Positions 856 to 53,703 of a stretch of DNA of 64,000 nucleotides are shown here, one piece after another. The stretch lies in IMG/VR virus record IMGVR_UViG_3300025383_000009. One strand, 5' to 3'. Numbering within the stretch: position 1 is the first letter of the stretch; each line of letters opens with the position of its first letter. Under the pieces are notes generated by a model. The model was not told the DNA's origin and ran no database searches. It saw only the letters and a list, made by a program, of their open reading frames with translations. The DNA is from a virus. Its lineage: Duplodnaviria > Caudoviricetes. The position numbers and the translations under genes are program-made.

Positions 856-863
856 TATTTATA
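856..863 (-). promoter_or_regulatory. T4-type late promoter TATAAATA
   Basis: Exact TATAAATA on the minus strand upstream of the structural gene starting at 830. Confidence 0.75.
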
Positions 864-3441
864 CTCTAGCACCTGACTTAGATCCCGCTGGTCTGCCACG
901 TCCGCGTTTCTCTTTTGTTTCATCATCAGGTTTCTCATCAGTCTCATCATCTTTTTGATTAGCACCACCATACGCTGTACCTTTAACTAGATTGATATGC
1001 GGATGGCTTGTATCTGGTTTAAACTTAGGATCATACGCTGATTGACTAGCTTGTCTTAACTTCTGAGCGTCTCTTAAGTCATCGATCTTACCTTCATCCA
1101 TAACTGCTAAAGTACCTTTAACGTATGGAGACATTTCTTGTGAAACTTCTTCTTTAACACCAGAAGCTTTATGAATTTTCTCATGAGCTTTGCTTGATTG
1201 ACGTAATGCAGCATCATCAGATCGAGAAGCTTTTCCATCATCCATATTATCATAATGATATCTTTGTTTAAGATGATGAGCTACTGACTTTTCAACATCC
1301 TTACCAATGCCCTTATCACCTAGCTTTTTAGAAGCTCTTGCTAAACCTGTTAATCTATTTTGAAGTGGTTTATGACCATATTTTCCTTGATTATTTTTTC
1401 CACCTTGAATTTCAAGTTCATGTCTTGTAGGTGTTCCACTATCATATGCATCATGTGCTTTATCTTGAGCATCATCCGTAGCTTTATGAGCATATGAACC
1501 TAAAGTCTTTTTAGATAATTCATCAATCTGTGTTAACTTTTCTTCGATGCGTTCTACTTCTTCTTTAGATAATGATTGCATACCACGTTGAGCTAAAGCT
1601 TTAGCACGATCCATACCTTTACCAGGTTCTACTGGTTTCTTGAAGTGAGTATCTGCTTGTTGTGCAGTCTTATGACCGGCAACAATAGCAAGTTCTTTAC
1701 CTGAGATACCATGTTGTTTACCAACTGTCTCATAATCTGTAGGTGTAAACTGTTTATGACTTGAGTAACCCTTCTTGGTAGCATGATCCATCATGTCAGT
1801 ATAGATGTCTTTCATCTTGCCTTCATCGATCTTACCTTCATCCATAACTTGTAGTGTAGCTTTAAGGTATGGTGATATCTCTTGTGAAACTTCTTCTTTA
1901 ACAGGGTTACCAGTCTTAGGATCTAACTTAGTAACTTTACTAAAGTAATGTGAGTGTTGTTTCATTGCATCTGAAGATTTTACTGGTTTAGCCATTGAAT
2001 CATTTTTAGACCAACCGTCTTTAGGAAAACGCATTTCGTCCTCACACATTTCGCCTTCGTTAACACCAGCTGCTTTCATGAACTTAGCATGATCGAAGCG
2101 TGGGTTTTGTTTAGCGAAGATACCTGCATGATGTGTAGCAAGTTCTTTACGTTTCTCTGCAGATTCGTGACCTTTAATAAGATCAGCAACCATTTGGAAG
2201 TCTTTACGTGTAGTAGCTTCTTCTAATTCTACTTCTTCTTTAGCAATCTTCTTGCCAGCTCTTTCTAAACCTGACATCCTGTTAGAAGCACGACGACCAT
2301 GCTCTGATGCTTCTGGAGCATCATCATTTTCTTCTGCATCACGCTCATTATGGATAGACGATGCTAAATCTGATGAAGCTTTCTTAACGTAGTTACCTAA
2401 AGTCTTATTAGATAACTCATCGATCTGTGTTAACTTCTCTTCGATGCGTTCTACTTCTTCTTTGGATAATGATTGCATGCCGCGTTGAGCTAAAGCTTTA
2501 GCACGATCCATTTCATGGCCTTTTTCTACTGGCTTCTTGAAATTTGTAGGATCGTAATGATGTTTAGGATGACCATAGTGTTTATGGAACTCGTCATGAC
2601 CCATGTTTTGTAAGTCATAAGCAAGTTCTTTCATCTTACCTTCATCTAACTGAACGTCTTCTTTTAATTTGTCAACAGCTTTATCATGGCCTTTCTCACG
2701 CTTCCATGCTTGAGATTGGTATTTGCCAGCAAGACTATCCCATGTTTCTTTCTTTCTTGGGTTTCTTGCATGTGCAGCTTTACTCTTAAAGTCTGCAGCT
2801 ACATGTTGTTTGATACGTGCATCATGTGAAGCTTTCTTAGTATATGATGCTAATGTGTCTTTTGATAACTCATCGATCTGTTCTACTTCTTCTTTTTGTA
2901 CTTTAACAGGGTATGTTTTACCTTGGAACTCAAACTCTTTCTTACCCTCTTTATGAGCTGCATGAGCTGCCATACGGAGACCTGATTCGTCTACGTCTGC
3001 CTCTGACATCTTAGCTTTACCAGCTTGTGCAGACCAAGATTCTTTAACATGCTTTTTCTCTAATCTTTCAGCTTTTAATCTATGATACTCAGATGCTCTT
3101 TCATGACCAAAATATGAACCATGTTCTTCTTGATTAGCTGGACTTAAGTGATGTTCACCGGATTCTGATTCATGATGAAAAATTCGTGCTTCATCATGAT
3201 GAGTCTCCATGTGTTTATGATAAGCATGCATGTCACCTTTTTTCTTTGCAGCTTCAGCTTTTTCTTTATGCTTAGTGATCTCATGAGCCCATTTATTAAT
3301 GTCTTTAGCTTCACCATGTTCAGCACCGCTATCATAATCAGATCTCTTTGTAGATAAAGGTTCATGTTTCCAATGAGAATCTTTAATATTCTCCTCATTG
3401 AGCTGTACATTTTCCTTTAAAAAATCATTGAACTTTAACAT
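859..3441 (-). CDS. Large His/Lys-rich repetitive putative internal head (poly)protein
   Basis: N-terminus MLKFNDFLKE resembles the T4 capsid-targeting sequence; recurrent EEVE(Q/R)I(D/E)E linkers and ELSKxTLxxYxKKA modules. Confidence 0.6.
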   Translation of the reverse strand: MLKFNDFLKENVQLNEENIKDSHWKHEPLSTKRSDYDSGAEHGEAKDINKWAHEITKHKEKAEAAKKKGDMHAYHKHMETHHDEARIFHHESESGEHHLSPANQEEHGSYFGHERASEYHRLKAERLEKKHVKESWSAQAGKAKMSEADVDESGLRMAAHAAHKEGKKEFEFQGKTYPVKVQKEEVEQIDELSKDTLASYTKKASHDARIKQHVAADFKSKAAHARNPRKKETWDSLAGKYQSQAWKREKGHDKAVDKLKEDVQLDEGKMKELAYDLQNMGHDEFHKHYGHPKHHYDPTNFKKPVEKGHEMDRAKALAQRGMQSLSKEEVERIEEKLTQIDELSNKTLGNYVKKASSDLASSIHNERDAEENDDAPEASEHGRRASNRMSGLERAGKKIAKEEVELEEATTRKDFQMVADLIKGHESAEKRKELATHHAGIFAKQNPRFDHAKFMKAAGVNEGEMCEDEMRFPKDGWSKNDSMAKPVKSSDAMKQHSHYFSKVTKLDPKTGNPVKEEVSQEISPYLKATLQVMDEGKIDEGKMKDIYTDMMDHATKKGYSSHKQFTPTDYETVGKQHGISGKELAIVAGHKTAQQADTHFKKPVEPGKGMDRAKALAQRGMQSLSKEEVERIEEKLTQIDELSKKTLGSYAHKATDDAQDKAHDAYDSGTPTRHELEIQGGKNNQGKYGHKPLQNRLTGLARASKKLGDKGIGKDVEKSVAHHLKQRYHYDNMDDGKASRSDDAALRQSSKAHEKIHKASGVKEEVSQEMSPYVKGTLAVMDEGKIDDLRDAQKLRQASQSAYDPKFKPDTSHPHINLVKGTAYGGANQKDDETDEKPDDETKEKRGRGRPAGSKSGARV
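1530..2520 (-). repeat. Internal near-identical DNA duplication within the 860-aa gene (about 1530-1620 vs about 2410-2515)
   Basis: Both copies encode MDRAKALAQRGMQSLSKEEVERIEEKLTQIDELS. Confidence 0.85.
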
Positions 3442-3442
3442 A

Positions 3443-6166
3443 TTAATATCCCTCTCTTCTTAGTTTTTTAGCGGCATCAATGATGCGTTGGTTATGTTTT
3501 GAAATCTTGCCTTTAATGCCAGCTTTTTCTGCAGGATGTTCTGCTGCTGCATGTTGTTTATGAAGCTCATGAGCATGTGTCAATGACTTACCCATATAGT
3601 CTGTCCACTTTTCATCAGTAGGCATGTTTGCTTCTGCGACTCTTTCTATGTCTGCAGTCCTGATACCAAACATCTTACGATGTTGAGATTTATGTTTACC
3701 ATACTTCTTAAAGTATTTGAGGCTATCTAAGTTTTTCATATCGTCCTCAACGTTCTTTGTTAAGAAGCCTTCTTTCATACCCATCATCTTTTTCTTTTGT
3801 TCTGCATCCTTCTTAGGAGTCTCTATGCCTTTATCAGCAGGGTTGTTTTGACCTGTAAAAGCTCTCTGTGCAACTTCTCTATTCTTAAAAAAGTTAGCAA
3901 GTACTTTATGACCTCTTGACTCTTCAACTTCTTCCTTCTTCATGACTTTAGATTGTGTCTTAACTTGCATGGTTTTAGGTTTAACTTGTGATCCTGGAAT
4001 ACCATCATGATGATGGGCTTCTGTTAATGATTTATGCGGTACAGATGTCTTTTGTGTACCATATGAACCACCATGGAAGTGTACTGTATCATTGTCACGT
4101 GTAGCTTTCCATTTACGACCTGTCTCATCTTTAAATGAATGAGATTCACCATGTTTTAACTTAGCGATTGGCTCATGGTGTTCAGGATGTAGTGGGATCG
4201 AGAATGATTTACCGTGGTTAACAGTCTTCATTGTACCCCAATCATACTTACGTGATGACACTGTTGCTTCTTCGATATGTTCTACCTCTTCTTTTTGTGT
4301 GCCAAGCTTCTTAGTAGCACGGTCAATACCAGCGATACGTTTGTTTGCTTTCTTAAAGTCTGCATAAGACTTCTTAGAGTGTTTCTCTGCAGCTTCCCAG
4401 TCACCAGCTCTTGTATAGTGTGATGCCCATTCTCCAGCTTCTTTACCTGCATAAGTATGGGAACCAACATCTCTTGATGCTTTAGGAATGTATCTCATAA
4501 GTGTTGACTTAGATACTTCATCGATCTGTACTGATTCACCAATAGTATGAGCTAACTTATGTCTTTTAGCAAATTTTTGTGCTTGTTCAACATGATCTGC
4601 ATGTCCATGAAATTTACCTGATTTATCAATATTATTTTTAATATGATTTAAATCGCGTGACATCACTTTAACATTAAAATTAGATTTGTTATGATCCAAT
4701 TCTTTATCTACAGCATCATGAAATTTAGCAGGTTCATGAAATGTAATAGATTTTGCTTCATCGATCTGCTCTTCTTTAAGTGATCTCTCTGCACGCTCAT
4801 CACCTTTAACTCTATTTGATAGCTTACGCATATCATCTTTAGCAGTCTTCTTATAAGGGCTTTGATGGATAGCATAAGCACGATTCACGTCCTTAGCAGC
4901 TTTATCTCTGTAAGATTGGTATGTGCTCTTCTTTAACTCGTCAAGGTTAACTACTTCTTCTTTAGTTAATTTTTGTTTAGGTGTAACTGTTTGTCCTGCA
5001 GTTGCAGCATCATAAGCTTGACGTATAGTCTTATACTTAGATGGGCCACCTTCAACTGGAACTCCATTTCGTGTTGCACCACCACCTGCTTGTACTTTAA
5101 TTGGTTTAGTAGCGACCATCTTCTTAGTGATAGGATCGTATACTTTAGATTCGTCTAACTCTACGTCTTCTTTAGCGAGTTTTTGTTTTGCTTTATAAAC
5201 ACCATCTGCACGATTAAGATACTTCTTATCAAGATGTTTCATTTCAGGTGTATCATCAGAGAATTTACCATGTGTTTTGTCTCTAATATCTCTGAGTTTA
5301 GAATAGTTTTGTTGATACTTATCTTCTTCCTTCTCAGCTTTCTTAACATAAGAACCTAAAGTCTTCTTTGAGATCTCGTCGATTTGTTCAACTTCTTCTT
5401 TTAATTTAGCTACTCTATGTTTGTGCATCTTAACTATATCACCGCTAGCAGTTTTAATATGCCACATATCACCAGTACGTTCTTTTGATGAACCAACAAC
5501 TGTGCCGTGTTTACCAGAATCAAGACCAGAACCAGCTAATACAGCAGCTTTATGACCAACTGCTACTTTAGCATCACGATCGATAGGGCCATGTTCATAT
5601 CCTTCTTTAAAATCTTTAACTTCTTTTTTCTTTTGTGTTAAAGGGATAGGAGGATTTAAAACCTTTTTCTTGTCAACTACATCTGTACCGATACCTTTAT
5701 ACTCAATAGCTTCTGAAAGGTGTGCATCACATGATTTATGTGGACACTTATTAACATGATGCATGAAGTTTTGTGCATGTTCTTTTGATGGGAATTTAAA
5801 GAATACACCTTTATCAGATCCACCTGCATGTTCACCACCATGTTGTTTAACACCAGCCATGACATGCTCTACATCTTTTTCATGTGGTTGTTCATCGTAC
5901 TTAGAACCATCAGATACATGTACTAAATGCTCTTCTTTAGCTTCTCTCATGTCAACTTCTGCTGTAGAATTTTGTGATACTGCAGCTGACTCTTCTCTTT
6001 GTTTAGAATAGTATGCTGCGAGTGCCATTTGTTTACGCTTTGCAGCAGACTTACCTGCAAACTTAGGATTATCTGAGTGTACAAAGTCATCTATCCACTT
6101 ACCAGCTGGTGTGGACTTGGTTAAGATCTCATCTAGTCTTTGTGTTAGGTCTTTGTACGACTTCAT
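3443..6166 (-). CDS. Large His/Lys-rich repetitive putative internal head (poly)protein
   Basis: N-terminus MKSYKDLTQRLDE; repeats EEVEQIDEISKKTLGSYVKKA, NLDELKKSTYQSYRDKA, QIDEVSKSTLMRYIPKA. Confidence 0.6.
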   Translation of the reverse strand: MKSYKDLTQRLDEILTKSTPAGKWIDDFVHSDNPKFAGKSAAKRKQMALAAYYSKQREESAAVSQNSTAEVDMREAKEEHLVHVSDGSKYDEQPHEKDVEHVMAGVKQHGGEHAGGSDKGVFFKFPSKEHAQNFMHHVNKCPHKSCDAHLSEAIEYKGIGTDVVDKKKVLNPPIPLTQKKKEVKDFKEGYEHGPIDRDAKVAVGHKAAVLAGSGLDSGKHGTVVGSSKERTGDMWHIKTASGDIVKMHKHRVAKLKEEVEQIDEISKKTLGSYVKKAEKEEDKYQQNYSKLRDIRDKTHGKFSDDTPEMKHLDKKYLNRADGVYKAKQKLAKEDVELDESKVYDPITKKMVATKPIKVQAGGGATRNGVPVEGGPSKYKTIRQAYDAATAGQTVTPKQKLTKEEVVNLDELKKSTYQSYRDKAAKDVNRAYAIHQSPYKKTAKDDMRKLSNRVKGDERAERSLKEEQIDEAKSITFHEPAKFHDAVDKELDHNKSNFNVKVMSRDLNHIKNNIDKSGKFHGHADHVEQAQKFAKRHKLAHTIGESVQIDEVSKSTLMRYIPKASRDVGSHTYAGKEAGEWASHYTRAGDWEAAEKHSKKSYADFKKANKRIAGIDRATKKLGTQKEEVEHIEEATVSSRKYDWGTMKTVNHGKSFSIPLHPEHHEPIAKLKHGESHSFKDETGRKWKATRDNDTVHFHGGSYGTQKTSVPHKSLTEAHHHDGIPGSQVKPKTMQVKTQSKVMKKEEVEESRGHKVLANFFKNREVAQRAFTGQNNPADKGIETPKKDAEQKKKMMGMKEGFLTKNVEDDMKNLDSLKYFKKYGKHKSQHRKMFGIRTADIERVAEANMPTDEKWTDYMGKSLTHAHELHKQHAAAEHPAEKAGIKGKISKHNQRIIDAAKKLRREGY

Positions 6167-6168
6167 TC

Positions 6169-6627
6169 TTATTCTCCGGGTTTCTTAATTTGTTTTAATG
6201 ATGCGAGGATTTGCCATTCCCACATCTTATGTTTATCCATACGGTCTGCTACAAAGTTAGCAAGGCCTTGTTGTTTTTCTCTTGTAGCATCATCAAATAG
6301 CTCTGTCAATACGTGTAGTATCTCTGTGTTTGCATGTAGTAAGTTAACTAACATCTCACTGATGTTTTCAGGCTTAACTTTATCTTCCTCTATAGTCTTA
6401 TAGCTATGGATCTCTTCAAGGCTGATAGGTGCATACACATCAAGCTTACGCAAGTTCTCTGCAAATGGGTCTACAGCTCCATAGGTGTCTTCATAGATCT
6501 TTTGGAAGAACTTATGGTACTGACTAAAGAACATCCCTTCCACGTTCCAATGGTATGAATGACTCTTGAAGTACATACAAAACGTATTACCCAATGCAAC
6601 CTTCAACGTAGCGATTAGCTTTTCCAT
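6169..6627 (-). CDS. dps: Dps/ferritin-like DNA-binding protein
   Basis: HSYHWNVEG, YHKFF and AVDPFAENL ferroxidase-type residues; start moved to MEKLIATLK at 6627 to avoid overlap. Confidence 0.9.
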   Translation of the reverse strand: MEKLIATLKVALGNTFCMYFKSHSYHWNVEGMFFSQYHKFFQKIYEDTYGAVDPFAENLRKLDVYAPISLEEIHSYKTIEEDKVKPENISEMLVNLLHANTEILHVLTELFDDATREKQQGLANFVADRMDKHKMWEWQILASLKQIKKPGE

Positions 6628-6629
6628 AT

Positions 6630-8402
6630 TTATTTTCTCTCGGTTTGCTGTCTCATCCATGAATCATAATCTAGGAGAGTATTAAGGTTTTCTTTTTTAA
6701 TCTTCTTTTCAAAGAAAGCACTAAAGCCTTTGCCTTTTTGTTTATTTGGTTCATCATCTGCTGGTGGTGCCATATTAGCTGGTAGTGGTACAACCTTAGT
6801 AACCTTTTGGCCTTCTACTTCACCGTCTGCCGACTCCTGTGTATACTCGCCGTCTTTTGTGATGTAGCATTCTTTACCGTACTTCTTACCAGCTGCTCCA
6901 GCTTCTCCTCTTGATTTATGAGGGCCAGATAAGATATCGTTTGACGCTGTACATCTTACGTAGTAACCAGCTTCGTGTTCAGGTTTGATCTGTACACCTG
7001 CTGTCTCGTTCTTTGTCATCACAGACTCAGTAGCATACATGACTTTACGTCTACGTAGGTGACGATCTGTCTCTAGTGTATGACCAACTTCGGTATGTTT
7101 ATGGAACGGGTACTTTTGTAAATCATCGATCTGCTGTGAGATGTTAGGGTCTAAGACTTGCTTGATCTCTTTGTCATCAGGTATGATGCCTTGGTTCATC
7201 TTATGTAGTTTCATGAAGTCAGAGTATCTTAATACGTCTTGAGCTATGTTATAGGTGTTAGATACGCCTTCCTTGATAGTCATCTTATCAAGCTCGGCTT
7301 TATGTTTTTCCCAATGTTCTTTGTGAGAATCAAAGCATCCTAGTTTCTCTAGTGATTCTCTTGACTTCTTATGAGCTTCTTGAGCATCCTTAACATGTTT
7401 AAAGCCATATAGTTCTGGCTTGGACGGGTCGAAGTCATAGATCTTAAGGTATGCATCAGTTGTCTTGATAGCATTTAACATAGCAACTGGATCTGTAGCT
7501 TTGTCCATAGTTAGTTTAAAGGCTTTTGAGCCTTGTGGACAATGATGCATATTAGTTGTCGTGTAGCCTTTGTAGGAGATCTCATGACCTTCGTTGACCT
7601 CTACTTGCTCAGGCACACAGTTAGGGACTGTCTTACCATTTTTCTTTTTAAGGCCGATAGCCTTGTAGCCTTTCCAACATGCTTTAGATAGGGACTTAGC
7701 TTCTACTAATGACACATCCTTCACCCATTTCCTATGTAAGGTGCCAGTGTTATCAACTACGACTAGGTAGTTTGATCCACGGTCCATGATCTCGTACTGA
7801 TGACCAGCAGACTCAACGATGTCACCCACATGGTAGATCTCACCTTTAAAGTACTTCTCTCTAAGTATGTCTACTGAGAACTTGATATCTTCTTTGATTA
7901 GTTCAAGACCTTGGACTTGTCTCATCTCGTTCATGATCCTACGAGCGTCAAGTTCACGTACCATTGATGGCAGTTGTTTCTTAAACGATGTAAAGTCACC
8001 CTTGGTGACCATTGATTTGATCTTTGAGAAGTCAACGTCATTGCCTGTGGTGACAACGTTCATTGACTCGTATAGCTTGGCTTTATCTTCTGAAGCAACT
8101 ACGATGACATCCTTGTACCTCTTCTTAAGAGCTGTTAGTTCAGAAGCAAAGTTTGACTCGTTCAATGCCTTAAAGTTCATTGAACCAAACATCATCTCAA
8201 GGAAGTGTAGCTTACGATCTACTGGTAGGCTATCCTTGTCTTCTGTAACATAGATTATGTGGTCGGCAGAGTTTGACTCAACTAGCTTATGGACTAGCTT
8301 AAGAGTCATCTCAGTGACCGAGGTAGGCGGGTTAAAGCTTCCGACTGTCATGATGACGGTCTTAGAAGGCAATTCCCGTATGAGTTGTCTATAGTTCTTC
8401 AT
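6630..8402 (-). CDS. Cytidylyltransferase-like (HIGH-family) protein with degenerate HxGH motif and appended modules
   Basis: VGSFNPPTSVTE where the paralog has GRMNPPTTGH; later LREKYFKGEIYHVGD and CWKGY...VPNCVP modules; N-terminus MKNYRQLIRE. Confidence 0.7.
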   Translation of the reverse strand: MKNYRQLIRELPSKTVIMTVGSFNPPTSVTEMTLKLVHKLVESNSADHIIYVTEDKDSLPVDRKLHFLEMMFGSMNFKALNESNFASELTALKKRYKDVIVVASEDKAKLYESMNVVTTGNDVDFSKIKSMVTKGDFTSFKKQLPSMVRELDARRIMNEMRQVQGLELIKEDIKFSVDILREKYFKGEIYHVGDIVESAGHQYEIMDRGSNYLVVVDNTGTLHRKWVKDVSLVEAKSLSKACWKGYKAIGLKKKNGKTVPNCVPEQVEVNEGHEISYKGYTTTNMHHCPQGSKAFKLTMDKATDPVAMLNAIKTTDAYLKIYDFDPSKPELYGFKHVKDAQEAHKKSRESLEKLGCFDSHKEHWEKHKAELDKMTIKEGVSNTYNIAQDVLRYSDFMKLHKMNQGIIPDDKEIKQVLDPNISQQIDDLQKYPFHKHTEVGHTLETDRHLRRRKVMYATESVMTKNETAGVQIKPEHEAGYYVRCTASNDILSGPHKSRGEAGAAGKKYGKECYITKDGEYTQESADGEVEGQKVTKVVPLPANMAPPADDEPNKQKGKGFSAFFEKKIKKENLNTLLDYDSWMRQQTERK

Positions 8403-8988
8403 TTTTTGTCGCCAGTTTTTTGCTTAATATTGTTGCTGCTATTTTAGCTTTAGTTTCTTCAGACCTTGGCACTCCTTTAAATGCTGCAGATATTTTAGCT
8501 TTAGTTTCTGCGGAACGTGGAGATCCTTTTACCCAAGGGCATGATTTACCTCTTTTAGCTTCTGACATTTTCTGTTTTGTTTGTTCAGCAATAATTTTGC
8601 CTTTAGCTGAATTAGACATATTTGTTCTTTGTTTTTCAGTATAAATTTTACCTAATTTAGCTTTAGATTGTTTTTCTCTTGTTAACTTAGTAACTATTAT
8701 ACCGCTAGTACCTTCTCCACCATCTGTCATATTATATAATAACCCGGTTCCAAGATCTTTACGACCCCACCAACGGATCATACGACGTTCAAGAGCTAAA
8801 GCTCCAATCTCAGTAAGATTAGTTTCTAGTAGTATTATTTTATTCTTGTCTTTAGGCACTTTAATTCGGCCGTGTGTTTCATACGCACGATCGTTTTTAC
8901 CCTTACCAATATAGTAAGGAATGCCTTTTTTACTTAGATAGGCATATATGTAATATATAGTGCCTAATGGGCTGGGTTTATTCTTCAT
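8389..8988 (-). mobile_element. Free-standing GIY-YIG homing endonuclease with NUMOD3-like repeats
   Basis: YYIYAY...YYIGKG, conserved R and E, YNMTDGGEG, C-terminal RSxETKAKI repeats. Confidence 0.9.
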
Positions 8989-9017
8989 TTAAATCCATCT
9001 ATATAAAAGTATATTAT

Positions 9018-9025
9018 TATTTATA
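9018..9025 (-). promoter_or_regulatory. Late promoter TATAAATA
   Basis: Exact motif upstream of the GIY-YIG gene. Confidence 0.7.
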
Positions 9026-9272
9026 CTACAGAAAGTATCGTTTTTGTAATATTCACGACCCATCTTGCAGTTACCTCATCTTGTGCAAGCTCTGCGTTAG
9101 CTTGGACGTTACCAATCTCGGTAACTAGATCCTTATACTCTACGTCTGTAAGTATGCCATCATTGTATTGCTCTGTGATGTCATGTAACTGTTGAGCTAA
9201 TGCGCCTTTGATTCCCGGCTCTGCCATGGCAGATCTTAATTCGGTTAAAACACTCATGATCTTCCTTTCCAT
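9021..9272 (-). CDS. Hypothetical protein
   Basis: Fits operon packing; no motif recognised. Confidence 0.65.
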   Translation of the reverse strand: MERKIMSVLTELRSAMAEPGIKGALAQQLHDITEQYNDGILTDVEYKDLVTEIGNVQANAELAQDEVTARWVVNITKTILSVV

Positions 9273-9610
9273 GCTGACTCAATCACTTGAAGACGAGTCC
9301 TATTAAGTTTAATGGTGGCTTCACAGTATGCTGGGCTTCCGTCTCTAGCTTTTTGTGCTGCGATGTAGAACTCAGTTACTGCCTTCTGTTGAGGGTCATC
9401 CCTCCATGCTGTATATACATCCAACCAACGGGCATCCTCAATAAGCTTTGCCCAGTCAACTTCTTTCTTATCATTGCAAGATACCTTCTCAATATCTACT
9501 TTAAGGTCTGTAAGCTTGGCTGCTTCTGCAGTATCATGATGCTTGGGTAGTAGGTTAGTTATAGCACACCCATTCAATAGTAGTACACTTACTAATAGTA
9601 GTCTCTTCAT
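9254..9610 (-). CDS. Putative lipoprotein
   Basis: MKRLLLVSVLLLNGC signal peptide with lipobox-like LNGC. Confidence 0.65.
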   Translation of the reverse strand: MKRLLLVSVLLLNGCAITNLLPKHHDTAEAAKLTDLKVDIEKVSCNDKKEVDWAKLIEDARWLDVYTAWRDDPQQKAVTEFYIAAQKARDGSPAYCEATIKLNRTRLQVIESAWKGRS

Positions 9611-10221
9611 TACTTGCTCCCTTGTTGTACGTCATGCATTAGTTCTTTTGCATGTTTATCTGATACATGCTCTGGTACACCCTTACGAAACTCATGGAAG
9701 TTACCTGATTTTGCATGCTCTCTTTGTTTAGTGCCTGATACGCCTGATGTACCCTCAGAATCTGGATCTCTATGACCAGCAGAGTGTACTGTTATCTTCT
9801 TAAAGTTATAATGCCCGTGTCCGGCTTTCTTGTTATTATACCTATTTAACAGCGTCGTCATCTCCTTCTTACGATCTGATCCTACCACAACATGTAGGTG
9901 AGTTACACCTTTCTTATGTAGATCAGCTGCATGGTGTAATATGGTTGGATGCTCGGCAGATGATGCCTTAATGTTTGTCTTAGGTGAGAAGCGTTTAAGG
10001 TGTTTAAGCTTTTGCTCTGGTGATAGTGGGTTCTTTTTCTTATCATGGCTATGTGATGTCACCACTGTATGACCAGCTTCATGTTTATCAGCCACGTCAT
10101 GGACCTTCTTGATAAGTGAAAGATGACCAGTCGTAGGAGGGTTCATACGACCATAAGTCAATACATGATGCTTAGCACCAGTATCCTCTGTGATAAAATC
10201 TTTTAGACTTAGCAATTCCAT
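9610..10221 (-). CDS. Cytidylyltransferase-like (HIGH-family) nucleotidyltransferase
   Basis: TYGRMNPPTTGH, HSHDKKKNPL, VVGSDR and SGTKQR (KMSKS-like) motifs. Confidence 0.85.
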   Translation of the reverse strand: MELLSLKDFITEDTGAKHHVLTYGRMNPPTTGHLSLIKKVHDVADKHEAGHTVVTSHSHDKKKNPLSPEQKLKHLKRFSPKTNIKASSAEHPTILHHAADLHKKGVTHLHVVVGSDRKKEMTTLLNRYNNKKAGHGHYNFKKITVHSAGHRDPDSEGTSGVSGTKQREHAKSGNFHEFRKGVPEHVSDKHAKELMHDVQQGSK

Positions 10222-10484
10222 TTTCTTAAAGCTAATGCCTTCCTTGTTGGTTTGCCATGTTCATCCTTCATAGGACCTTTAACTCCACCCATACGAGCGC
10301 AGAAAGACTTACGTCGTCCTGCAGCCTTACCACCTTTTTTAAGTTTGGATGGTGGTGTTGTTACAGCCATTTTTAAATGATGACCAGGATTCTCTCTGTT
10401 ATACTTATCTACACCAGCACGGGTTAAACCACCGGTCTCTGACTTGTACTTGTCTTCTTTAAGGTACTCTTTAAACGTTAGCAT
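10209..10484 (-). CDS. Conserved basic T4-like phage protein (DUF6321-like)
   Basis: GGLTRAG...RRKSFCARMGG...ALRKWNC; N-terminus MLTFKEYLKE. Confidence 0.7.
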   Translation of the reverse strand: MLTFKEYLKEDKYKSETGGLTRAGVDKYNRENPGHHLKMAVTTPPSKLKKGGKAAGRRKSFCARMGGVKGPMKDEHGKPTRKALALRKWNC

Positions 10485-11661
10485 TTGGTTTACGGTTCCT
10501 CATTAAGTTTGCACGACTAAACTCAGCTCTATCTACAAGCTTTGTTGGTTCGTTCTTATGGTTAACTACATAGCCTTCTGGATGTGTCTCCTTACCTTCA
10601 ATGTGATGGCTTAGAGTTCCAGGATGTTGGTTCAATGTCTTTACCAATACGTTCTTTGCTTTTTGGATATGCTGATGCATCTTCAATAAGTTCTCGTATG
10701 AGCTTGCATGCTTATTGATATGGTTAATTTCTTGCTGTGCACCGCGTTGCTTCTCTTCTGCAGCCTTTGTAGTCTTAAGCCTTGATTGGACGATCTGTGA
10801 TTTGTCCATGACATGTTGCTGTAAGCCTCTTACTGTTGGCTTTGCGTTGTTTCGTACTGTTTGGTTGATGTATGTAGCTAGATGACCAGATGCACCTTGA
10901 TGTGGCTCAGTAGCAGCATACATAGTCTTCTTATGTTCGTCATGGATCTTTTGTGCAGCATCCATATGTTTATGAAACTCTTGTTGAGCTTTGTCTCCAT
11001 AGTTTATGATACGTGTATCATGCTCAGCAGTCTTATGCCATACATCTGGATGCTGTCTGAACTTATGCTCGATCTCAGGGCTTGCCTTCATATCACCTAT
11101 ATCTCGACCATGATACTGCTGATGGACGACTACGCCAACCTTTGCTTTCTTAACTTTATTAGCTTCTTGTCCATGAGCTGAGTAGGTAATGGTATTTGGA
11201 GTAAACGAAGTTGATCCGTTTGGATTATGAACCACATCATGATGACTAAACATCATGTCGCCTTGATAGACACCTTTCTTAGGAGTTACCTTTGGTAGAT
11301 GTGTTAATGCATCTTTAAGTTTTTGCACAAGACCTGGAGCATGACCATGATTTCTTTCAATGTCTTCAGGCGTATGGTTAATCTTAGGGTTCTTATTGAA
11401 TGCAGACTTGGTAGCTACAAAGAACTTACCCGTCTTTGGATGATGACCGAATACGATCGCTGGTGAGCCATCATACTTCATCGTTAGGCTTTTATCCTTC
11501 TTACCAGACTTGATATGCTCAGACGCTTGGTTCAATGCACCCTTTGCATGCTCAAAACCTTTGGCTCCATTGATAAGAGGTCTATCCTCAGGATGGGCTA
11601 TATGTGATACTTTGCCCTCTGTAGATATAGCTTCTGTTAAGTATTGTGAAAATGATATCAT
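10471..11661 (-). CDS. DUF6267-like protein with ATP-dependent ligase-type motifs
   Basis: KYDG (motif I), YQGDMMF (III-like), EGYVV (IV), TKLVD (V); N-terminus MISFSQYLTE. Confidence 0.7.
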   Translation of the reverse strand: MISFSQYLTEAISTEGKVSHIAHPEDRPLINGAKGFEHAKGALNQASEHIKSGKKDKSLTMKYDGSPAIVFGHHPKTGKFFVATKSAFNKNPKINHTPEDIERNHGHAPGLVQKLKDALTHLPKVTPKKGVYQGDMMFSHHDVVHNPNGSTSFTPNTITYSAHGQEANKVKKAKVGVVVHQQYHGRDIGDMKASPEIEHKFRQHPDVWHKTAEHDTRIINYGDKAQQEFHKHMDAAQKIHDEHKKTMYAATEPHQGASGHLATYINQTVRNNAKPTVRGLQQHVMDKSQIVQSRLKTTKAAEEKQRGAQQEINHINKHASSYENLLKMHQHIQKAKNVLVKTLNQHPGTLSHHIEGKETHPEGYVVNHKNEPTKLVDRAEFSRANLMRNRKPNANV

Positions 11662-11662
11662 A

Positions 11663-12754
11663 TTATCTTAATGTAAATGTTCCTGCAGTACCTTTATGCG
11701 GACCTGATGTTGATTTAAAAGTCTGTGTAGCTACAGCTTTAACTTTACCATGATCTTTATGACCAGGATTATGGTATGTACCATGGATCGTAGCGCTGAT
11801 GCCACCATGTTTAACATGTAAGTTCTTAAAGTGTTTAAGGTGTTCGTCAGCTATGTGCTCTGAATCATGGACATGTGATGTAGCGGATCCATCATCATGT
11901 ACATGGCTATGAGCTACAAGGTGCTTGAACTTAGTTGGAGGGGATACTTGATCTCTAATATGCTTCCTAAGTTCTGAATCAGACTTCTTAGATAATCCTT
12001 TTGCGTGCTCCTTAGCCATAGCCGTTCTTACAGCAATAGATGATTGTTCAGCTTCATGGGCGCGCTTAGCATCTTTAGACTTTGGTTTAAATTCACCCGT
12101 ACCTTTATGTGCTTTCTTTTCTGCTTCTAACTTAGCTTTATCCATCTTATAGTGTTCGTGTCTTTGCTGTGTAGTACCGTGATAGCCAATAATTTGCATA
12201 TTGTTTTCATGGGCTTTTTGGAGTTTAGTATAGATCCCATGTTTACCTGAATGCTTTTCAAGTGATGCTAGTCCAGCATTCTTAAAATTAGGTTGAGCGT
12301 TTGAACCATACTTTGCTGATATCGGATGGAAATGTTTCTTACCTTTCTTATCATGAGAAGTTACTATCACGTCTGCGTTTGAGTTAACATCCTTATGACC
12401 TGTGGTCTTTTCATGATCTCCAGCTTTTTTCTCTGTGTCTCTGTTGGAAGTCCAATGAACTGCATGGATAGTATGACCTTTTGGGATATGTTTCTTTATC
12501 TCACCTGCAGTTTGCTTAGCATGTTTGTCTATCTCTTTGTATGCTGCATCACCAATCTTTTTCTTTAGTTTAGTGTGTACTTGTTCAGGTGTTCCAGAGT
12601 GTTCAGGGTTATCTGACACAGCTCTATGGTGTTCAGGGAGTTTACCTTTTGGATGGAGATGCTTAGCTAATAATAATTCATGCATCTTACCTTTATCATC
12701 AGCGGCCACTGAAGAGGTTGCAGATTCTACTAAAAAGTCATTAAAGCTTAACAT
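11663..12754 (-). CDS. Putative PD-(D/E)XK restriction-like nuclease
   Basis: GKMHELL helix, NADVIV...ISAK; N-terminus MLSFNDFLVE. Confidence 0.5.
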   Translation of the reverse strand: MLSFNDFLVESATSSVAADDKGKMHELLLAKHLHPKGKLPEHHRAVSDNPEHSGTPEQVHTKLKKKIGDAAYKEIDKHAKQTAGEIKKHIPKGHTIHAVHWTSNRDTEKKAGDHEKTTGHKDVNSNADVIVTSHDKKGKKHFHPISAKYGSNAQPNFKNAGLASLEKHSGKHGIYTKLQKAHENNMQIIGYHGTTQQRHEHYKMDKAKLEAEKKAHKGTGEFKPKSKDAKRAHEAEQSSIAVRTAMAKEHAKGLSKKSDSELRKHIRDQVSPPTKFKHLVAHSHVHDDGSATSHVHDSEHIADEHLKHFKNLHVKHGGISATIHGTYHNPGHKDHGKVKAVATQTFKSTSGPHKGTAGTFTLR

Positions 12755-12763
12755 ACATCTTCC

Positions 12764-13363
12764 TTATTTTATCGTGGTAACAGAGCCATCTTCCTTGGCC
12801 ATGTATGCCTCAAAAGTTATAGATGGGAACTCTTTCTTTAGTTTTAAAAATTCTTTTAGGTTACTCATACTGTCATCAAATAGTCTTACCCTTGAGAACT
12901 GTCTTGTCTTAAGGTAGTTCCTAATGATAATAGCTTTCTTAAAAGCTGGGATCATTTGCCCTTCGATCCTACCGGCTCTCTCGATCCTAACCTTATTTAT
13001 TGGAAACCCATACTTACTAAAAGTAGCAAGTACTTTGTTCTTATCATCAAAGTTATTCCTAGCTGTGATGATGACTACTTTACTATTAGGTGTATTAGCT
13101 GCGTTCTTAGCGATGGCTCTAGCTTTGTTAAACATCTTAGAGATCGGTGTAGACTCTTTAAGAAACTTCTCGGAGCTAGCAAATTGGGTGAAGTCAAACT
13201 TCTCCCCTGGCTTCAACTTATAATCGTTGAACTGTTGGTTGGTGAGTGTCTTTACTACCTGCCCATTCTTGACCACTCCTACTTGTGCCGTAGTCTTGAA
13301 TAAGGTATCATCTATATCAAATATAGTAAGACCACCATTTAGGTTTTGTAATTCTTCAGCCAT
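12764..13363 (-). CDS. HAD-superfamily phosphatase
   Basis: IFDIDDTL (motif I), IITAR (II), LFDDSMSNL (IV). Confidence 0.85.
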   Translation of the reverse strand: MAEELQNLNGGLTIFDIDDTLFKTTAQVGVVKNGQVVKTLTNQQFNDYKLKPGEKFDFTQFASSEKFLKESTPISKMFNKARAIAKNAANTPNSKVVIITARNNFDDKNKVLATFSKYGFPINKVRIERAGRIEGQMIPAFKKAIIIRNYLKTRQFSRVRLFDDSMSNLKEFLKLKKEFPSITFEAYMAKEDGSVTTIK

Positions 13364-13391
13364 GATCCATCGATAAAAGTAAATTATTAAT

Positions 13392-13399
13392 TATTTATA
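13392..13399 (-). promoter_or_regulatory. Late promoter TATAAATA heading the cargo operon
   Basis: Exact motif just downstream of the gp41 terminator. Confidence 0.75.
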
Positions 13400-13401
13400 A
13401 T

Positions 13402-13425
13402 AAAAAAAGGCTACCGAAGTAGCCC
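13402..13425 (-). terminator. Intrinsic terminator after gp41
   Basis: GGCTAC-TTCG-GTAGCC followed by a T tract on the minus strand. Confidence 0.9.
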
Positions 13426-13429
13426 TTTG

Positions 13430-14824
13430 TTAGAACTTGAATCCCGAGAATTCCTCGGTGGCCACCCGTTTGCCAAAGTCGGACTTATCAAAGACTGGTC
13501 TATCATCTTGACCAGAGTCTGCTATGCCTTTCTGAGCTGTGACCTCTACATCATATAGCTTCATCTTAGACCTATCCACACCAATCACAAAACGTTTATA
13601 ATATGATGGATCATTATATCGATTCTTAAGCTGCTTGACCATGATCTGACCAAGGCCCTCAAGATCCTCTGTGGATATAAGAGCTAACATGAGATCAACA
13701 GTTGCTGGCAAACCAAAGGATTCGGATGTGTCCTCAAGACCTGGGTCGGAGTTCGTAAAACCGGACCGAGTAGTCTGTGTGGCACTCACGATAGGTACAT
13801 TATACTCAACTGCCAAACCCCTTAGTTCCTCAGCAATCGTCTTGACATAGGTATAACTGTTTACGTTAGCCCCATATCGAAGTCGTTGTGAACTACAAAT
13901 ATTTAGATAGTCAATGTAGATAATGTCAGGTTGAAACTCTTGTTTAAGTTTTAACTCTTCAAGTAATGCCCTAAAATGACCAGCATGGGCACCGGCAGTT
14001 GGGTATTCCTTGATGATCAACTTACCTTGAGACTTCTTCCTGACCTTATCTAAACGACTATCAAAGATGGGCTTATCGACCACCTTCAACTCATCCATAG
14101 AGAGGTTAAGTAAGTTTGCATCGACACGTTCTGCGATACGTTCCTCTGCCATCTCCATGGTAATATACAACACGTTCTTATTATCAAGTAGGTTTGCTGC
14201 CGCACAATGACACATGAATAATGACTTACCCACGCCTGTACCTGCTAACACTACGTTCAACGTCTTCTTACTTAGACCACCCTTAGTGATCTTATTAAGC
14301 ATATCCAAGTCAAACTTAATCTTTTCTTCTACATGATGATAAAACTCATACCTTTGATCAGAATCAGCAAGATAGGAATGCCCAACATGACTATCGAAAC
14401 TAACGCCAAGAGCATCTGAAAGGAGGCTAGGGATAGCATCCTCTGACCTATTTTTGTCTTTGCCATCGATGATACCGATCGCGTCGAGGATTGCATTATA
14501 GACTGCTTTCTTTTGGCAAAAGTTTTCTGTTTCATTTAATAACCACTCCTCATTAGTGTCTTGTTGTTTCAGTTCAGAGATCAATTGCTGTTGATCTTTT
14601 AAATCGCTGTCAGAGATGTCCTTACGGTTGTTTACTTCTATCGCAAGGATCTCTGGTGTTATTGGTTTGTTATACGTTTCAAAGAACTTAGATATCTCTT
14701 CGAATACGATTGCTTCTTTACGTTCAGAAAAGTACCTACGTTTTAAGAATGGTATGACCTTACGGCTATACTCTTCATTGAATATAAGGTTACTTAGTAT
14801 GGTTGTTTCAATCCTCATCGACAC
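13430..14824 (-). CDS. gp41: Replicative DNA helicase
   Basis: LAGTGVGKS Walker A, ITMEMAEE, IYIDYLNI, SATQTTRSG, QLKNRY. Confidence 0.97.
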   Translation of the reverse strand: MSMRIETTILSNLIFNEEYSRKVIPFLKRRYFSERKEAIVFEEISKFFETYNKPITPEILAIEVNNRKDISDSDLKDQQQLISELKQQDTNEEWLLNETENFCQKKAVYNAILDAIGIIDGKDKNRSEDAIPSLLSDALGVSFDSHVGHSYLADSDQRYEFYHHVEEKIKFDLDMLNKITKGGLSKKTLNVVLAGTGVGKSLFMCHCAAANLLDNKNVLYITMEMAEERIAERVDANLLNLSMDELKVVDKPIFDSRLDKVRKKSQGKLIIKEYPTAGAHAGHFRALLEELKLKQEFQPDIIYIDYLNICSSQRLRYGANVNSYTYVKTIAEELRGLAVEYNVPIVSATQTTRSGFTNSDPGLEDTSESFGLPATVDLMLALISTEDLEGLGQIMVKQLKNRYNDPSYYKRFVIGVDRSKMKLYDVEVTAQKGIADSGQDDRPVFDKSDFGKRVATEEFSGFKF

Positions 14825-51955: not shown

Positions 51956-53002
51956 TTATTTAATGTTATTGAGTACGGACATATATCTCTTAATTGAAGG
52001 ATTAACAGCTTTTTCTTCTGTTAATGGTTCAACTGGAGTATCTGTCACAACTGACTCAACTAATGTTGATGTTGCCTTGTTTGTGAAATAATTTTCACGA
52101 ATTACCTGAACTTTCTTAGAGAATGATTCAGCATCTTCAAAAGCTAATTCTTCAGCTAAGCCAACGAATTTTTCTTTATCAGTTTCTGTTAAACCATCTA
52201 AAGCATCAGCAACGATTTCGTTTTTAGCGGATTCGTTAAGGGCTTTAGCCATCTCAACGTTAGCTGCAACTTGTTCGTCTAGCTTAGCTTGTAATTCAGC
52301 GATAGTTTCTTCTTGTGCACCTAACACATCGAATTTTTCCTCTGGAACATCGATATAGTGCTCTTCGAATAAACCTTTCATACCGCTTACAAAGCTTTCT
52401 AAGATTTCAGACTTCATACCACTTTCAAGGGCGATTTCATTTTGTTTAACCCACTGCTCAACTACGTAGTTGAGGTATCCATCAACTTTTTCAACAAGAC
52501 CCTCTTGATTCTTTGCTGCTTCCTCTTGGAGGCGAGCTTCGAATTCTTCTTCAATAGTAGTCATGGCTTCGTTAATACGAGTCATAACTGCTGCTTCGAA
52601 GATAGTAGTTGCTTTGTCTTTAAACTCTTCAGTAAGTTCTTCACCGTTGAATAAAGCATCCATATCTTCTTTAAAATTAACTGCATGGCCAGGTGCGTGA
52701 GCTGGGATAGAATCCTTAGCTGTACGGATAACTGCTTGATCACCTGCTTCAGCCTTAGCTGTAACAACGTTAGGTTTCTTAGAAGTAGCTTCTGCAGCTG
52801 GATCTTCGTCTTCTACATTGTTTTTAGCGTTAGCTTCGTTAGGTGTTTCACCACCATTTGGCACTGAACCATGTGGACGAATAACTGCTTGGTCACCCGC
52901 TGCAGCATGTTTCGTCACAACATTGTCCTCATTTAACTCTTCTGCATTATCTGTAGCTCTTGATTCAGCTAAGATTTGTGCAATTTTTTGTTCGATTGAC
53001 AT
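51956..53002 (-). CDS. gp22: Prohead core scaffold protein
   Basis: EEFKDKATTIFEAAV, VDGYLNYVVEQW, LFEEHYIDVPEEK. Confidence 0.95.
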   Translation of the reverse strand: MSIEQKIAQILAESRATDNAEELNEDNVVTKHAAAGDQAVIRPHGSVPNGGETPNEANAKNNVEDEDPAAEATSKKPNVVTAKAEAGDQAVIRTAKDSIPAHAPGHAVNFKEDMDALFNGEELTEEFKDKATTIFEAAVMTRINEAMTTIEEEFEARLQEEAAKNQEGLVEKVDGYLNYVVEQWVKQNEIALESGMKSEILESFVSGMKGLFEEHYIDVPEEKFDVLGAQEETIAELQAKLDEQVAANVEMAKALNESAKNEIVADALDGLTETDKEKFVGLAEELAFEDAESFSKKVQVIRENYFTNKATSTLVESVVTDTPVEPLTEEKAVNPSIKRYMSVLNNIK

Positions 53003-53052: not shown

Positions 53053-53703
53053 TTATTTAATTTTCGCAAGGAATGATTGGAATGCTCTAATCTTTGCCTC
53101 TTGTAAATTTTTGCTTGAAGCTTTTCTAATAAATGCTTGTGCTTCTCGCAAGTCTTTCTCCACAAATTTTCCATCGACCATAACCCATTCTTTAGACTCC
53201 ATGACACCCTCTACGAAAGCATTAGGGGCGGACGGGTCAGCAACTATATCAGCTGCTGTCGCTAAAGTAAAATCTTTACCTACATAAGAAACATCACCTT
53301 TACGATCTAGTGATCCCATACCTCTGGAACTAACGCCAAGTCTAGCTCCTTCATCGATAAGTGACTTCACTATCTTACCATATGGTGTATCCATGATCTT
53401 AGCTTTACCAATGAAGTTATCACCTTCTCGATGAAGCTTTTTAATCATATGAGACACCCTGTCAAGGTTGATCGTAGGGGAATCAGGATGACCTAACTCA
53501 CCAAAGGCACGATTCTTATTGACATACTCATCGTTATATCGTTTTACCTCACCATCAAGTATCTCTACTGGATAGATACGGCCGTTACGATTCTTTAAGT
53601 TCGATTGAAGGAATACACCTTCAATGAAGTATTCTTTACCTTTACCTAGTTTCTCTTCAACTAAGTACTTAACCTCTTCGGTATGTTCTTTAATTAGCTT
53701 AAT
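53053..53703 (-). CDS. gp21: Prohead core protease, apparent ATT start
   Basis: Frame extends past the track's start through (M)KLIKE...IEGVFLQ...NRNGRIYP...GELGHP; later GVSSRGMG, DIVADPSAP. Confidence 0.95.
   Translation of the reverse strand: MKLIKEHTEEVKYLVEEKLGKGKEYFIEGVFLQSNLKNRNGRIYPVEILDGEVKRYNDEYVNKNRAFGELGHPDSPTINLDRVSHMIKKLHREGDNFIGKAKIMDTPYGKIVKSLIDEGARLGVSSRGMGSLDRKGDVSYVGKDFTLATAADIVADPSAPNAFVEGVMESKEWVMVDGKFVEKDLREAQAFIRKASSKNLQEAKIRAFQSFLAKIK

Follow-up and report, generated by a model that had tools for sequence, protein, structure and literature searches.

The capsid-targeting sequence (CTS) of the internal proteins of bacteriophage T4, reportedly the subject of work by Mullaney and Black in 1996, offers the closest parallel to the gene block analyzed here. 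This block lies at positions 859-13399 of the window, by which we mean the whole 64,000-nucleotide stretch of the IMG/VR virus record IMGVR_UViG_3300025383_000009 (Duplodnaviria; Caudoviricetes), and seven of its genes start with a similar leader peptide of 10 to 13 residues. We consider it likely that these leaders are T4-type CTSs, and the seven proteins that bear them are probably carried inside the virus particle, a reading well supported by analogy and by the proteomics of homologues.

In T4, the internal proteins IPI, IPII, and IPIII and the enzyme Alt carry a CTS that is processed by the prohead protease gp21 (PMC9026906, PMC3012670), and reviews on T4 have proposed the CTS as a general device loading diverse proteins in T4-like phages (PMC9026906). 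The mechanism considered here is thus this already known system. The block resembles it in an N-terminal leader of 10 to 19 residues with aromatic residues at positions 4 and 7 and [L/I]-x-E at positions 8 to 10, in mature parts that are basic and mutually unrelated, in the gp21/gp22/gp23 head module, in late expression signals, and in the occurrence of an enzyme, Alt, among the natural T4 cargo. It differs in that the mature parts have no sequence similarity to the T4 internal proteins or Alt, that 7 to 8 genes stand in one operon with a mature cargo of ~375 kDa, that the cargo includes enzymes for nucleic acids or nucleotides (ligase-like, restriction-like, nucleotidyltransferase) and two ~100-kDa proteins with repeated internal linkers, and that the leader can be present or absent within one protein family.

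In the giant phages phiKZ, 201phi2-1, and SPN3US, many diverse ejection or inner-body proteins are likewise loaded into the head via propeptides, and a gp21-related protease cuts them after Glu at several sites per protein; their propeptides, however, mostly exceed 100 residues and follow another cleavage motif. MuF-fused or polyvalent packaged effectors are loaded by fusion to a structural domain, not by a 10-residue tag. The cyanophages S-SM1 and S-CREM2 have a virion "cytidylyltransferase" and neighbors that are homologous to proteins of the present block, encoded in a syntenic block after gp41/uvsX, with a leader on detected proteins, but in the passages covered their papers report detection and no targeting signal (PMC3037559, PMC10665884). 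No paper in the searchable literature, outside which lay the subscription-journal proteome papers on Syn9 and S-PM2, links the CTS to cyanophage or pelagiphage proteins. New in the present study are the link to these unexplained cyanophage virion enzymes, the kinds of cargo, the repeated-linker giants, and the presence or absence of the leader within families.

RESULTS

Seven genes share an N-terminal leader

The original prediction had assigned the leader to seven minus-strand open reading frames (ORFs), and all seven ORFs and their N-termini were verified:

859-3441, minus strand: 860-amino-acid (aa) modular protein, paralogue of the 907-aa protein; leader MLKFNDFLKE; five K-E-E-V-E-x-[I/L]-[D/E]-E linkers
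3443-6166, minus strand: 907-aa modular protein; leader MKSYKDLTQRLDE, a 13-residue variant; four such linkers; mature isoelectric point (pI) 9.5
6630-8402, minus strand: 590-aa protein; leader MKNYRQLIRE; N-terminal domain paralogous to the 203-aa transferase
9610-10221, minus strand: 203-aa HIGH-motif nucleotidyltransferase ("cytidylyltransferase" in cyanophage annotations); leader MELLSLKDFITE, offset by two residues; PF01467 (29.5 bits against a cut-off of 21) and TIGR00125
10209-10484, minus strand: 91-aa small basic DUF6321 protein; leader MLTFKEYLKE; PF19846 (E 7e-24); mature pI 10.5
10471-11661, minus strand: 396-aa DUF6267 ligase-type nucleotidyltransferase-like protein; leader MISFSQYLTE; PF19782 (E 6e-96); mature part ~43 kDa, pI 9.7
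11663-12754, minus strand: 363-aa MspI/HinP1I-like PD-(D/E)XK nuclease, assigned by its fold model; leader MLSFNDFLVE; mature part ~39 kDa, pI 9.8, 12% His

Five of the seven leaders are in exact register and two, those of the 907-aa and 203-aa proteins, are offset, while each of the seven closes with [L/I]-x-E (the offset pair having F-I-T-E and L-D-E). In the related 165-kb contig L003, the orthologue of the 907-aa protein starts with the canonical 10-mer MKSYKQMVNE. The strict pattern ^M..[FY]..[FYL][LI].E, scored on the N-termini of the 195 called proteins of the whole 160-kb genome, matched five, against 0.045 expected from the same core inside proteins (Poisson P ~1e-9), an N-terminal enrichment of ~100-fold confined to one block. 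A relaxed pattern adds only the 203-aa protein and an eighth gene outside the window (genome 45462-46178; 238 aa; MKYAQYISE), which lies 2.1 to 2.8 kb before the window start. Between this gene and the window are genes for homologues of cyanophage virion proteins, including an M-A-L-W-G "S-layer domain" protein. Neither pattern matched a replication, tail, or baseplate gene anywhere in the genome; the replication genes do lack the leader, as had been claimed. Five block genes are leaderless (HAD-like, lipoprotein-like, 83-aa, homing endonuclease, and Dps-like).

Chance, or the residue of a recent gene duplication, could be invoked for the resemblance among leaders, since the two large proteins are paralogous, as are the two transferases. 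We regard this explanation as practically negligible: it is refuted by the count of strict matches and by orthologue comparison, the leader being retained in orthologues down to 33-47% identity while flanking residues vary, and the other carriers have unrelated folds. An element acting at the RNA level was also rejected, because synonymous codons differ among the seven leaders and the upstream DNA is unrelated; the signal is therefore the peptide.

The conserved leader positions are those mapped in T4

Read from NC_000866, the T4 propeptides are MKTYQEFIAE (IPII and IPIII), MKTFKEFTST...ITE (IPI), MELITELFDE (Alt), and MAKINELLRE (gp24). Mutagenesis of the IPIII leader has shown that residues 4 and 7 mainly govern targeting, and residues 8 and 10 processing (PMC9026906). 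In a leader logo built from 120 homologues each of the DUF6267 protein and the 363-aa nuclease, position 4 is F in 88-94%, position 7 F/Y in 83-94%, position 8 L/I in 83-93%, and position 10 E in 75-94%, while positions 2, 3, 5, 6, and 9 are variable. The four conserved positions are those mapped in IPIII. The capsid-targeting reading of the original prediction is borne out by the match at the functionally mapped residues, by a cognate protease and scaffold in the window and by leader-bearing homologues in published virion proteomes.

The genome to which the window belongs, that of an uncultured aquatic T4-like myovirus, measures 160,126 bp and is 99% complete. The window has all its genes on the minus strand and codes for gp23, a T4-type scaffold, an S77 prohead protease, portal, sheath, terminase, gp41, and UvsX. 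The same phage that bears the leaders thereby encodes a gp21-type protease and a gp22-type scaffolding core:

53053-53703, minus strand: gp21-type prohead serine protease (Peptidase_S77); PF03420 (match 53053-53457+)
51956-53002, minus strand: gp22-type scaffold; PF25623
50614-51945, minus strand: gp23 major capsid protein; PF07068

The phage's own gp23 and gp22 have L-x-E sites in T4-like places; the gp23 propeptide ends A-L-F-E before A, the T4 equivalent F-L-T-E before A. The protease gene has no ATG, GTG, or TTG upstream of its catalytic region, where AAGGAG (53716-53711) is followed by 7 nt and an in-frame ATT (53703-53701), and it probably starts at this rare codon to give a product M-K-L-I-K-E... 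When the gp22 scaffold and the 91-aa leader protein were modeled as a complex, the score was 0.01 and both folds were poor, so that the prediction speaks neither for nor against docking.

Homologues have been detected in purified virions

The published S-SM1 and S-CREM2 proteome tables, as covered here, give peptide counts, not N-termini. For purified S-SM1 virions, Table S8 of Sullivan et al. 2010 assigns 25 peptide counts to the "citidylyltransferase" T4-GC190, more than to the portal (18) or gp22 (22) (PMC3037559), and in the same tables its block neighbors T4-GC1453, 1454, 1455, 425, and 426 are also found in virions (PMC3037559). For S-CREM2, the part of the report consulted gives gp154 (a cytidylyltransferase), gp155, gp156, and gp160 as detected by mass spectrometry (PMC10665884). 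The same sources describe these virions as mature and CsCl purified.

Leaders are found on several of these proteins: SSM1_190 (T4-GC190) starts MKKFSAFLNE, S-CREM2 gp154 MKNFSSFLTE, and gp156 MKKLISE. Another S-SM1 gene product, SSM1_192, starts MLSFKELQE. The 203-aa transferase shares 37% identity with SSM1_190 and 35% with gp154, and gp156 shares 49% with the product of the eighth leader gene.

The leader as an optional, detachable module

Among named phages, the closest relatives of the block proteins, at ~30% identity, are from cyanomyoviruses, Pelagibacter phage HTVC008M, Methylophilales phage Melnitz, and Stenotrophomonas phage DLP6; orthologues at 60-99% identity occur on metagenomic contigs of 150-170 kb, and megablast with the block as query gave zero matches in 50,697 phage records. 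When the leader motif was looked for in related phages, Melnitz, DLP6, HTVC008M, P-RSM6, and two metagenomic relatives were each found to carry several leader-bearing genes in a syntenic block after gp41.

Within single families, the leader behaves as an optional, detachable module. The Pfam DUF6267 model starts at residue 19, after the leader; in the AlphaFold models of the DUF6267 protein and the nuclease the leader is modeled as disordered or as a free helix, residues 1-18 of the former being disordered. A leader can be recognized in 74 of the best 150 DUF6267 representatives at 50% identity, whose matched parts are 33-66% identical to the query, and full-length leaderless ones mostly start at or near a conserved K-L-K-H-L-E-H segment. 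In the nuclease family, 88 of 120 homologues retain the leader. Most of the cyanophage homologues examined lack it on both the DUF6267 protein and the transferase.

The shared N-terminus might instead be a non-capsid signal, such as another assembly or compartment tag, a signal for protein stability or degradation, or a context for translation initiation, with a coincidental likeness to the T4 CTS. The leaderless members of these families and the leaderless block proteins detected in virions would fit such a signal, which we nevertheless judge very unlikely: the match falls on precisely the four mapped CTS positions, codons and upstream DNA are not conserved, the leader has no hydrophobic core of the secretion type, the cognate protease and scaffold are present, and, in the proteome tables covered, leader-bearing homologues are in virions.

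The block has the features of a late transcription unit

Two elements stand at the head of the block:

13405-13428, minus strand: intrinsic terminator right after gp41 (the helicase gene ends at 13430); best terminator-like site on the minus strand, with a 10-bp stem, a TTCG loop, and a T run
13392-13399, minus strand: T4-type late promoter TATAAATA, 29 nt before the first ORF

Further minus-strand copies of TATAAATA occur at 9018-9025 and 856-863. Over the whole window, the octamer occurs 13 times, always on the minus (coding) strand, against an expectation of 6.6 for the two strands combined, and several copies just precede structural genes (gp22, sheath, and tube). Both copies named in the original prediction as marking a late block, at 13392 and 9018, were verified, with the addition of the terminator before the first. 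The block has no excess of sigma-70-like sites, and its genes overlap or abut. The predicted terminator insulates it from transcription of the upstream replication genes, and from these features taken together we read the block as a late unit, expressed during head building. Enzymes made only late have to be carried in the particle if they are to act early, as in the logic of T4 Alt.

A predicted restriction-type nuclease

The AlphaFold model of the 363-aa protein has a pLDDT of 91.7. Foldseek returned HinP1I with an E value of 1.3e-4 and a probability of 1.0 (0.98-1.0 for MspI/HinP1I), and VIA aligned the model with MspI at Z 9.9 (207/262 residues) and HinP1I at Z 9.1 (197/241), the next match being at Z 4.9 and the further ones mostly PD-(D/E)XK nucleases. 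These fold matches uphold the restriction-like nuclease of the original prediction. Residues D128, S146, and K148, with a spacing of 17 residues, are invariant in the family; they may be the equivalent of the catalytic D...(N/Q)-x-K of MspI and HinP1I. Profile searches of this family and of DUF6267 against PDB sequences gave nothing meaningful, and only the fold comparison was informative.

A search for a C5-cytosine methyltransferase partner gave no PF00145 match in the 99%-complete genome, and sites are not avoided there (GCGC at 1.05 and CCGG at 0.96 of expectation). The nuclease is therefore not part of a classical restriction-modification pair, and self-protection, if needed, must come from elsewhere. 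In Melnitz (L010, 1-947 and 7923-9008), an M.HhaI-like (GCGC) cytosine methyltransferase is encoded ~7 kb upstream of a leader gene that occupies the position syntenic to that of the nuclease gene. Histidine is unusually high (9-12.6%) in the nuclease, the DUF6267 protein, and the 203-aa transferase (window 9610-12754).

A ligase-type protein and two HIGH-family proteins

For the DUF6267 protein (model pLDDT 84.5), the best VIA match has a middling Z of 8.4, with top matches at Z 6-8.4 and Foldseek E values of only 0.15-0.7. Eighteen of the 20 top VIA rows are RNA or DNA ligases (NgrRnl, REL1, Trl1, T4 Rnl1, Rnl2, and DNA ligases). Invariant in 31 sequences are K62-Y-D64-G65, E362-G363-x-V365, and K374...R378, which would be motifs I (K-x-D-G, with the adenylated lysine), IV (E-G-x-V), and V (K-x-x-x-K/R) of the covalent nucleotidyltransferases. 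The ligase-like assignment made from the sequence finds support in these motifs and in the fold matches. Neither DUF6267 nor the older spelling "cytitidyltransferase" turned up in any paper by full-text search.

Two HIGH-family transferases had been proposed. The 203-aa protein keeps the T-x-G-H signature, as an intact T-T-G-H, whereas the 590-aa protein, with no Pfam match, has S-V-T-E in its place (G-H lost) and is a predicted catalytically degenerate paralogue. The latter has a Cys-containing C-W-x-G-Y...G-K-x-V-P-N-C-V-P module at residues ~239-272 (window 7590-7690), which is found again across many PHROG families and occurs as well in further block proteins of relatives and in S-CREM2 gp160, a protein detected in virions. 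DUF6267 and the HIGH-motif transferase are fused, in either order, in PHROG 455 and many metagenomic proteins (594-1246 aa; P0256, P0242, and P0254 among them), which suggests that the two work together.

Two large modular proteins and a small basic protein

The 860-aa and 907-aa proteins together contain nine copies of the K-E-E-V-E-x-[I/L]-[D/E]-E linker, and all other proteins of the phage a single one; it is also present in the orthologues of these two proteins and in S-SM1 SSM1_191, and in the L003 orthologues modules are shuffled between the two proteins. We find it plausible that both are polyproteins, because the nine conserved linkers each end in the protease motif. Neither protein gave anything above cut-off in Pfam or NCBIfam, PHROGs returned only two families of unknown function, and an ESM Atlas search with the 907-aa protein had no usable match. 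DUF6321, which constitutes the 91-aa protein, is elsewhere a C-terminal module of larger phage proteins (PHROG matches to the C-termini of long families). The mature pI is 9.4-10.5 in five of the seven leader proteins, as in the T4 internal proteins.

The nine linkers also fit another reading, in which the leader does target the prohead core but the proteins are core or scaffold fillers of the assembly phase, or enzymes acting on DNA within the head, to be degraded or expelled at maturation or kept in the empty capsid, so that no toolkit is injected. In their fit to the protease motif, the two largest proteins resemble the T4 core proteins gp22, gp67, and gp68 before these are chopped up, and gp67/gp68 are missing from cyanophage-like phages, leaving the role vacant (PMC2984593). 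We hold this reading to be unlikely, as the conserved catalytic signatures (KxDG, T-x-G-H, and D...S-x-K) argue for working enzymes, the homologues listed in the published tables come from mature CsCl-purified virions, and T4 CTS cargo, large fusions included, reaches the cell (PMC9026906).

Other genes of the block

The leaderless members of the block are as follows:

12764-13363, minus strand: HAD-type phosphatase-like protein with a DxDxT motif (I-F-D-I-D-D-T) and a weak match to phrog_415 ("polynucleotide kinase")
9254-9610, minus strand: 118-aa lipoprotein-like ORF with an L-N-G-C lipobox
9021-9272, minus strand: 83-aa acidic ORF, from the ORF call
8389-9025, minus strand: GIY-YIG/NUMOD3 homing endonuclease, PF07460, with its own TATAAATA (9018-9025)
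6169-6660, minus strand: Dps/ferritin-like protein, PF00210 (E 2e-18); NCBIfam Dps families below cut-off

The HAD-like protein has a 59% identical orthologue in L003 with the leader MLKFKEYITE, which the window copy lacks. The 118-aa and 83-aa ORFs also form a pair in L003. The homing endonuclease gene, between the 83-aa ORF and the 590-aa gene, is an insertion, absent at that place in L003 (77% identical). The Dps/ferritin-like gene is embedded in the block and is found in the same place in L003.

DISCUSSION

Several observations weigh against the proposal that the leaders are CTSs of packaged proteins: (i) the leaders of the 907-aa and 203-aa proteins deviate from the 10-residue register; (ii) the residue after Glu varies among the seven (N, I, L, D, D, A, and S); (iii) the S-SM1 block virion proteins T4-GC1453 and 1454, as listed in the tables covered, are without a canonical leader; (iv) cyanophage cytidylyltransferases mostly align only from residue 21; (v) the S-CREM2 authors, in the part of their paper covered, caution that abundant late proteins may copurify with virions (PMC10665884); and (vi) the phage is an uncultured IMG/VR record, known here from sequence alone. 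From (iii) and (iv), it follows that the leader is not strictly needed for association with the virion or that other signals exist.

We propose a model of protein loading based on the T4 system. The block would be transcribed late in infection from the TATAAATA promoter at 13392, as the motif and the preceding terminator suggest. By analogy with IPIII, the leader aromatics at positions 4 and 7 would dock the proteins to the prohead scaffolding core, and the gp21-type protease would then cut after [L/I]-x-E at positions 8 to 10, as in T4. The mostly basic mature proteins would remain in the head with the DNA, in line with the homologues found in virions. The cargo would comprise the MspI/HinP1I-like nuclease, the DUF6267 ligase-type nucleotidyltransferase, the HIGH-motif nucleotidyltransferase and its degenerate paralogue, the DUF6321 protein, and the two ~100-kDa proteins, which are probably cut further at their repeated linkers. 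Ejection of these proteins together with the DNA is probable, and they may act before phage gene expression, a step that, like their targets, we infer.

A wider proposal is possible, although it is not the outcome that we would expect if all its parts are taken together. The phage may deliver with its DNA a premade kit, consisting of a restriction-type nuclease, a ligase-type enzyme coupled to a nucleotidyltransferase, a HAD phosphatase in relatives, and two polyproteins cut by the head protease into many modules. This kit might act in the first seconds, before phage gene expression, perhaps by cutting unmodified host DNA or by healing and sealing damaged phage DNA or RNA, and loading by such tags might be widespread in the abundant marine and freshwater T4-like phages.

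Few known viruses are more abundant than the T4-like phages that infect cyanobacteria, SAR11, and other bacteria of aquatic habitats. If the leaders are indeed CTSs, one could predict from a 10-residue leader with a terminal [L/I]-x-E which uncharacterized proteins of these phages travel in the capsid, and the recurrent "cytidylyltransferases" of cyanophage virion proteomes would be explained. Enzymes able to act before phage gene expression, such as the ligase-like DUF6267 protein and the MspI-like nuclease, would likewise stand out, and the early steps of host takeover and counter-defense in these phages would become directly testable. The tag could, moreover, serve as a protein-loading handle for T4-like phages of hosts other than Escherichia coli.

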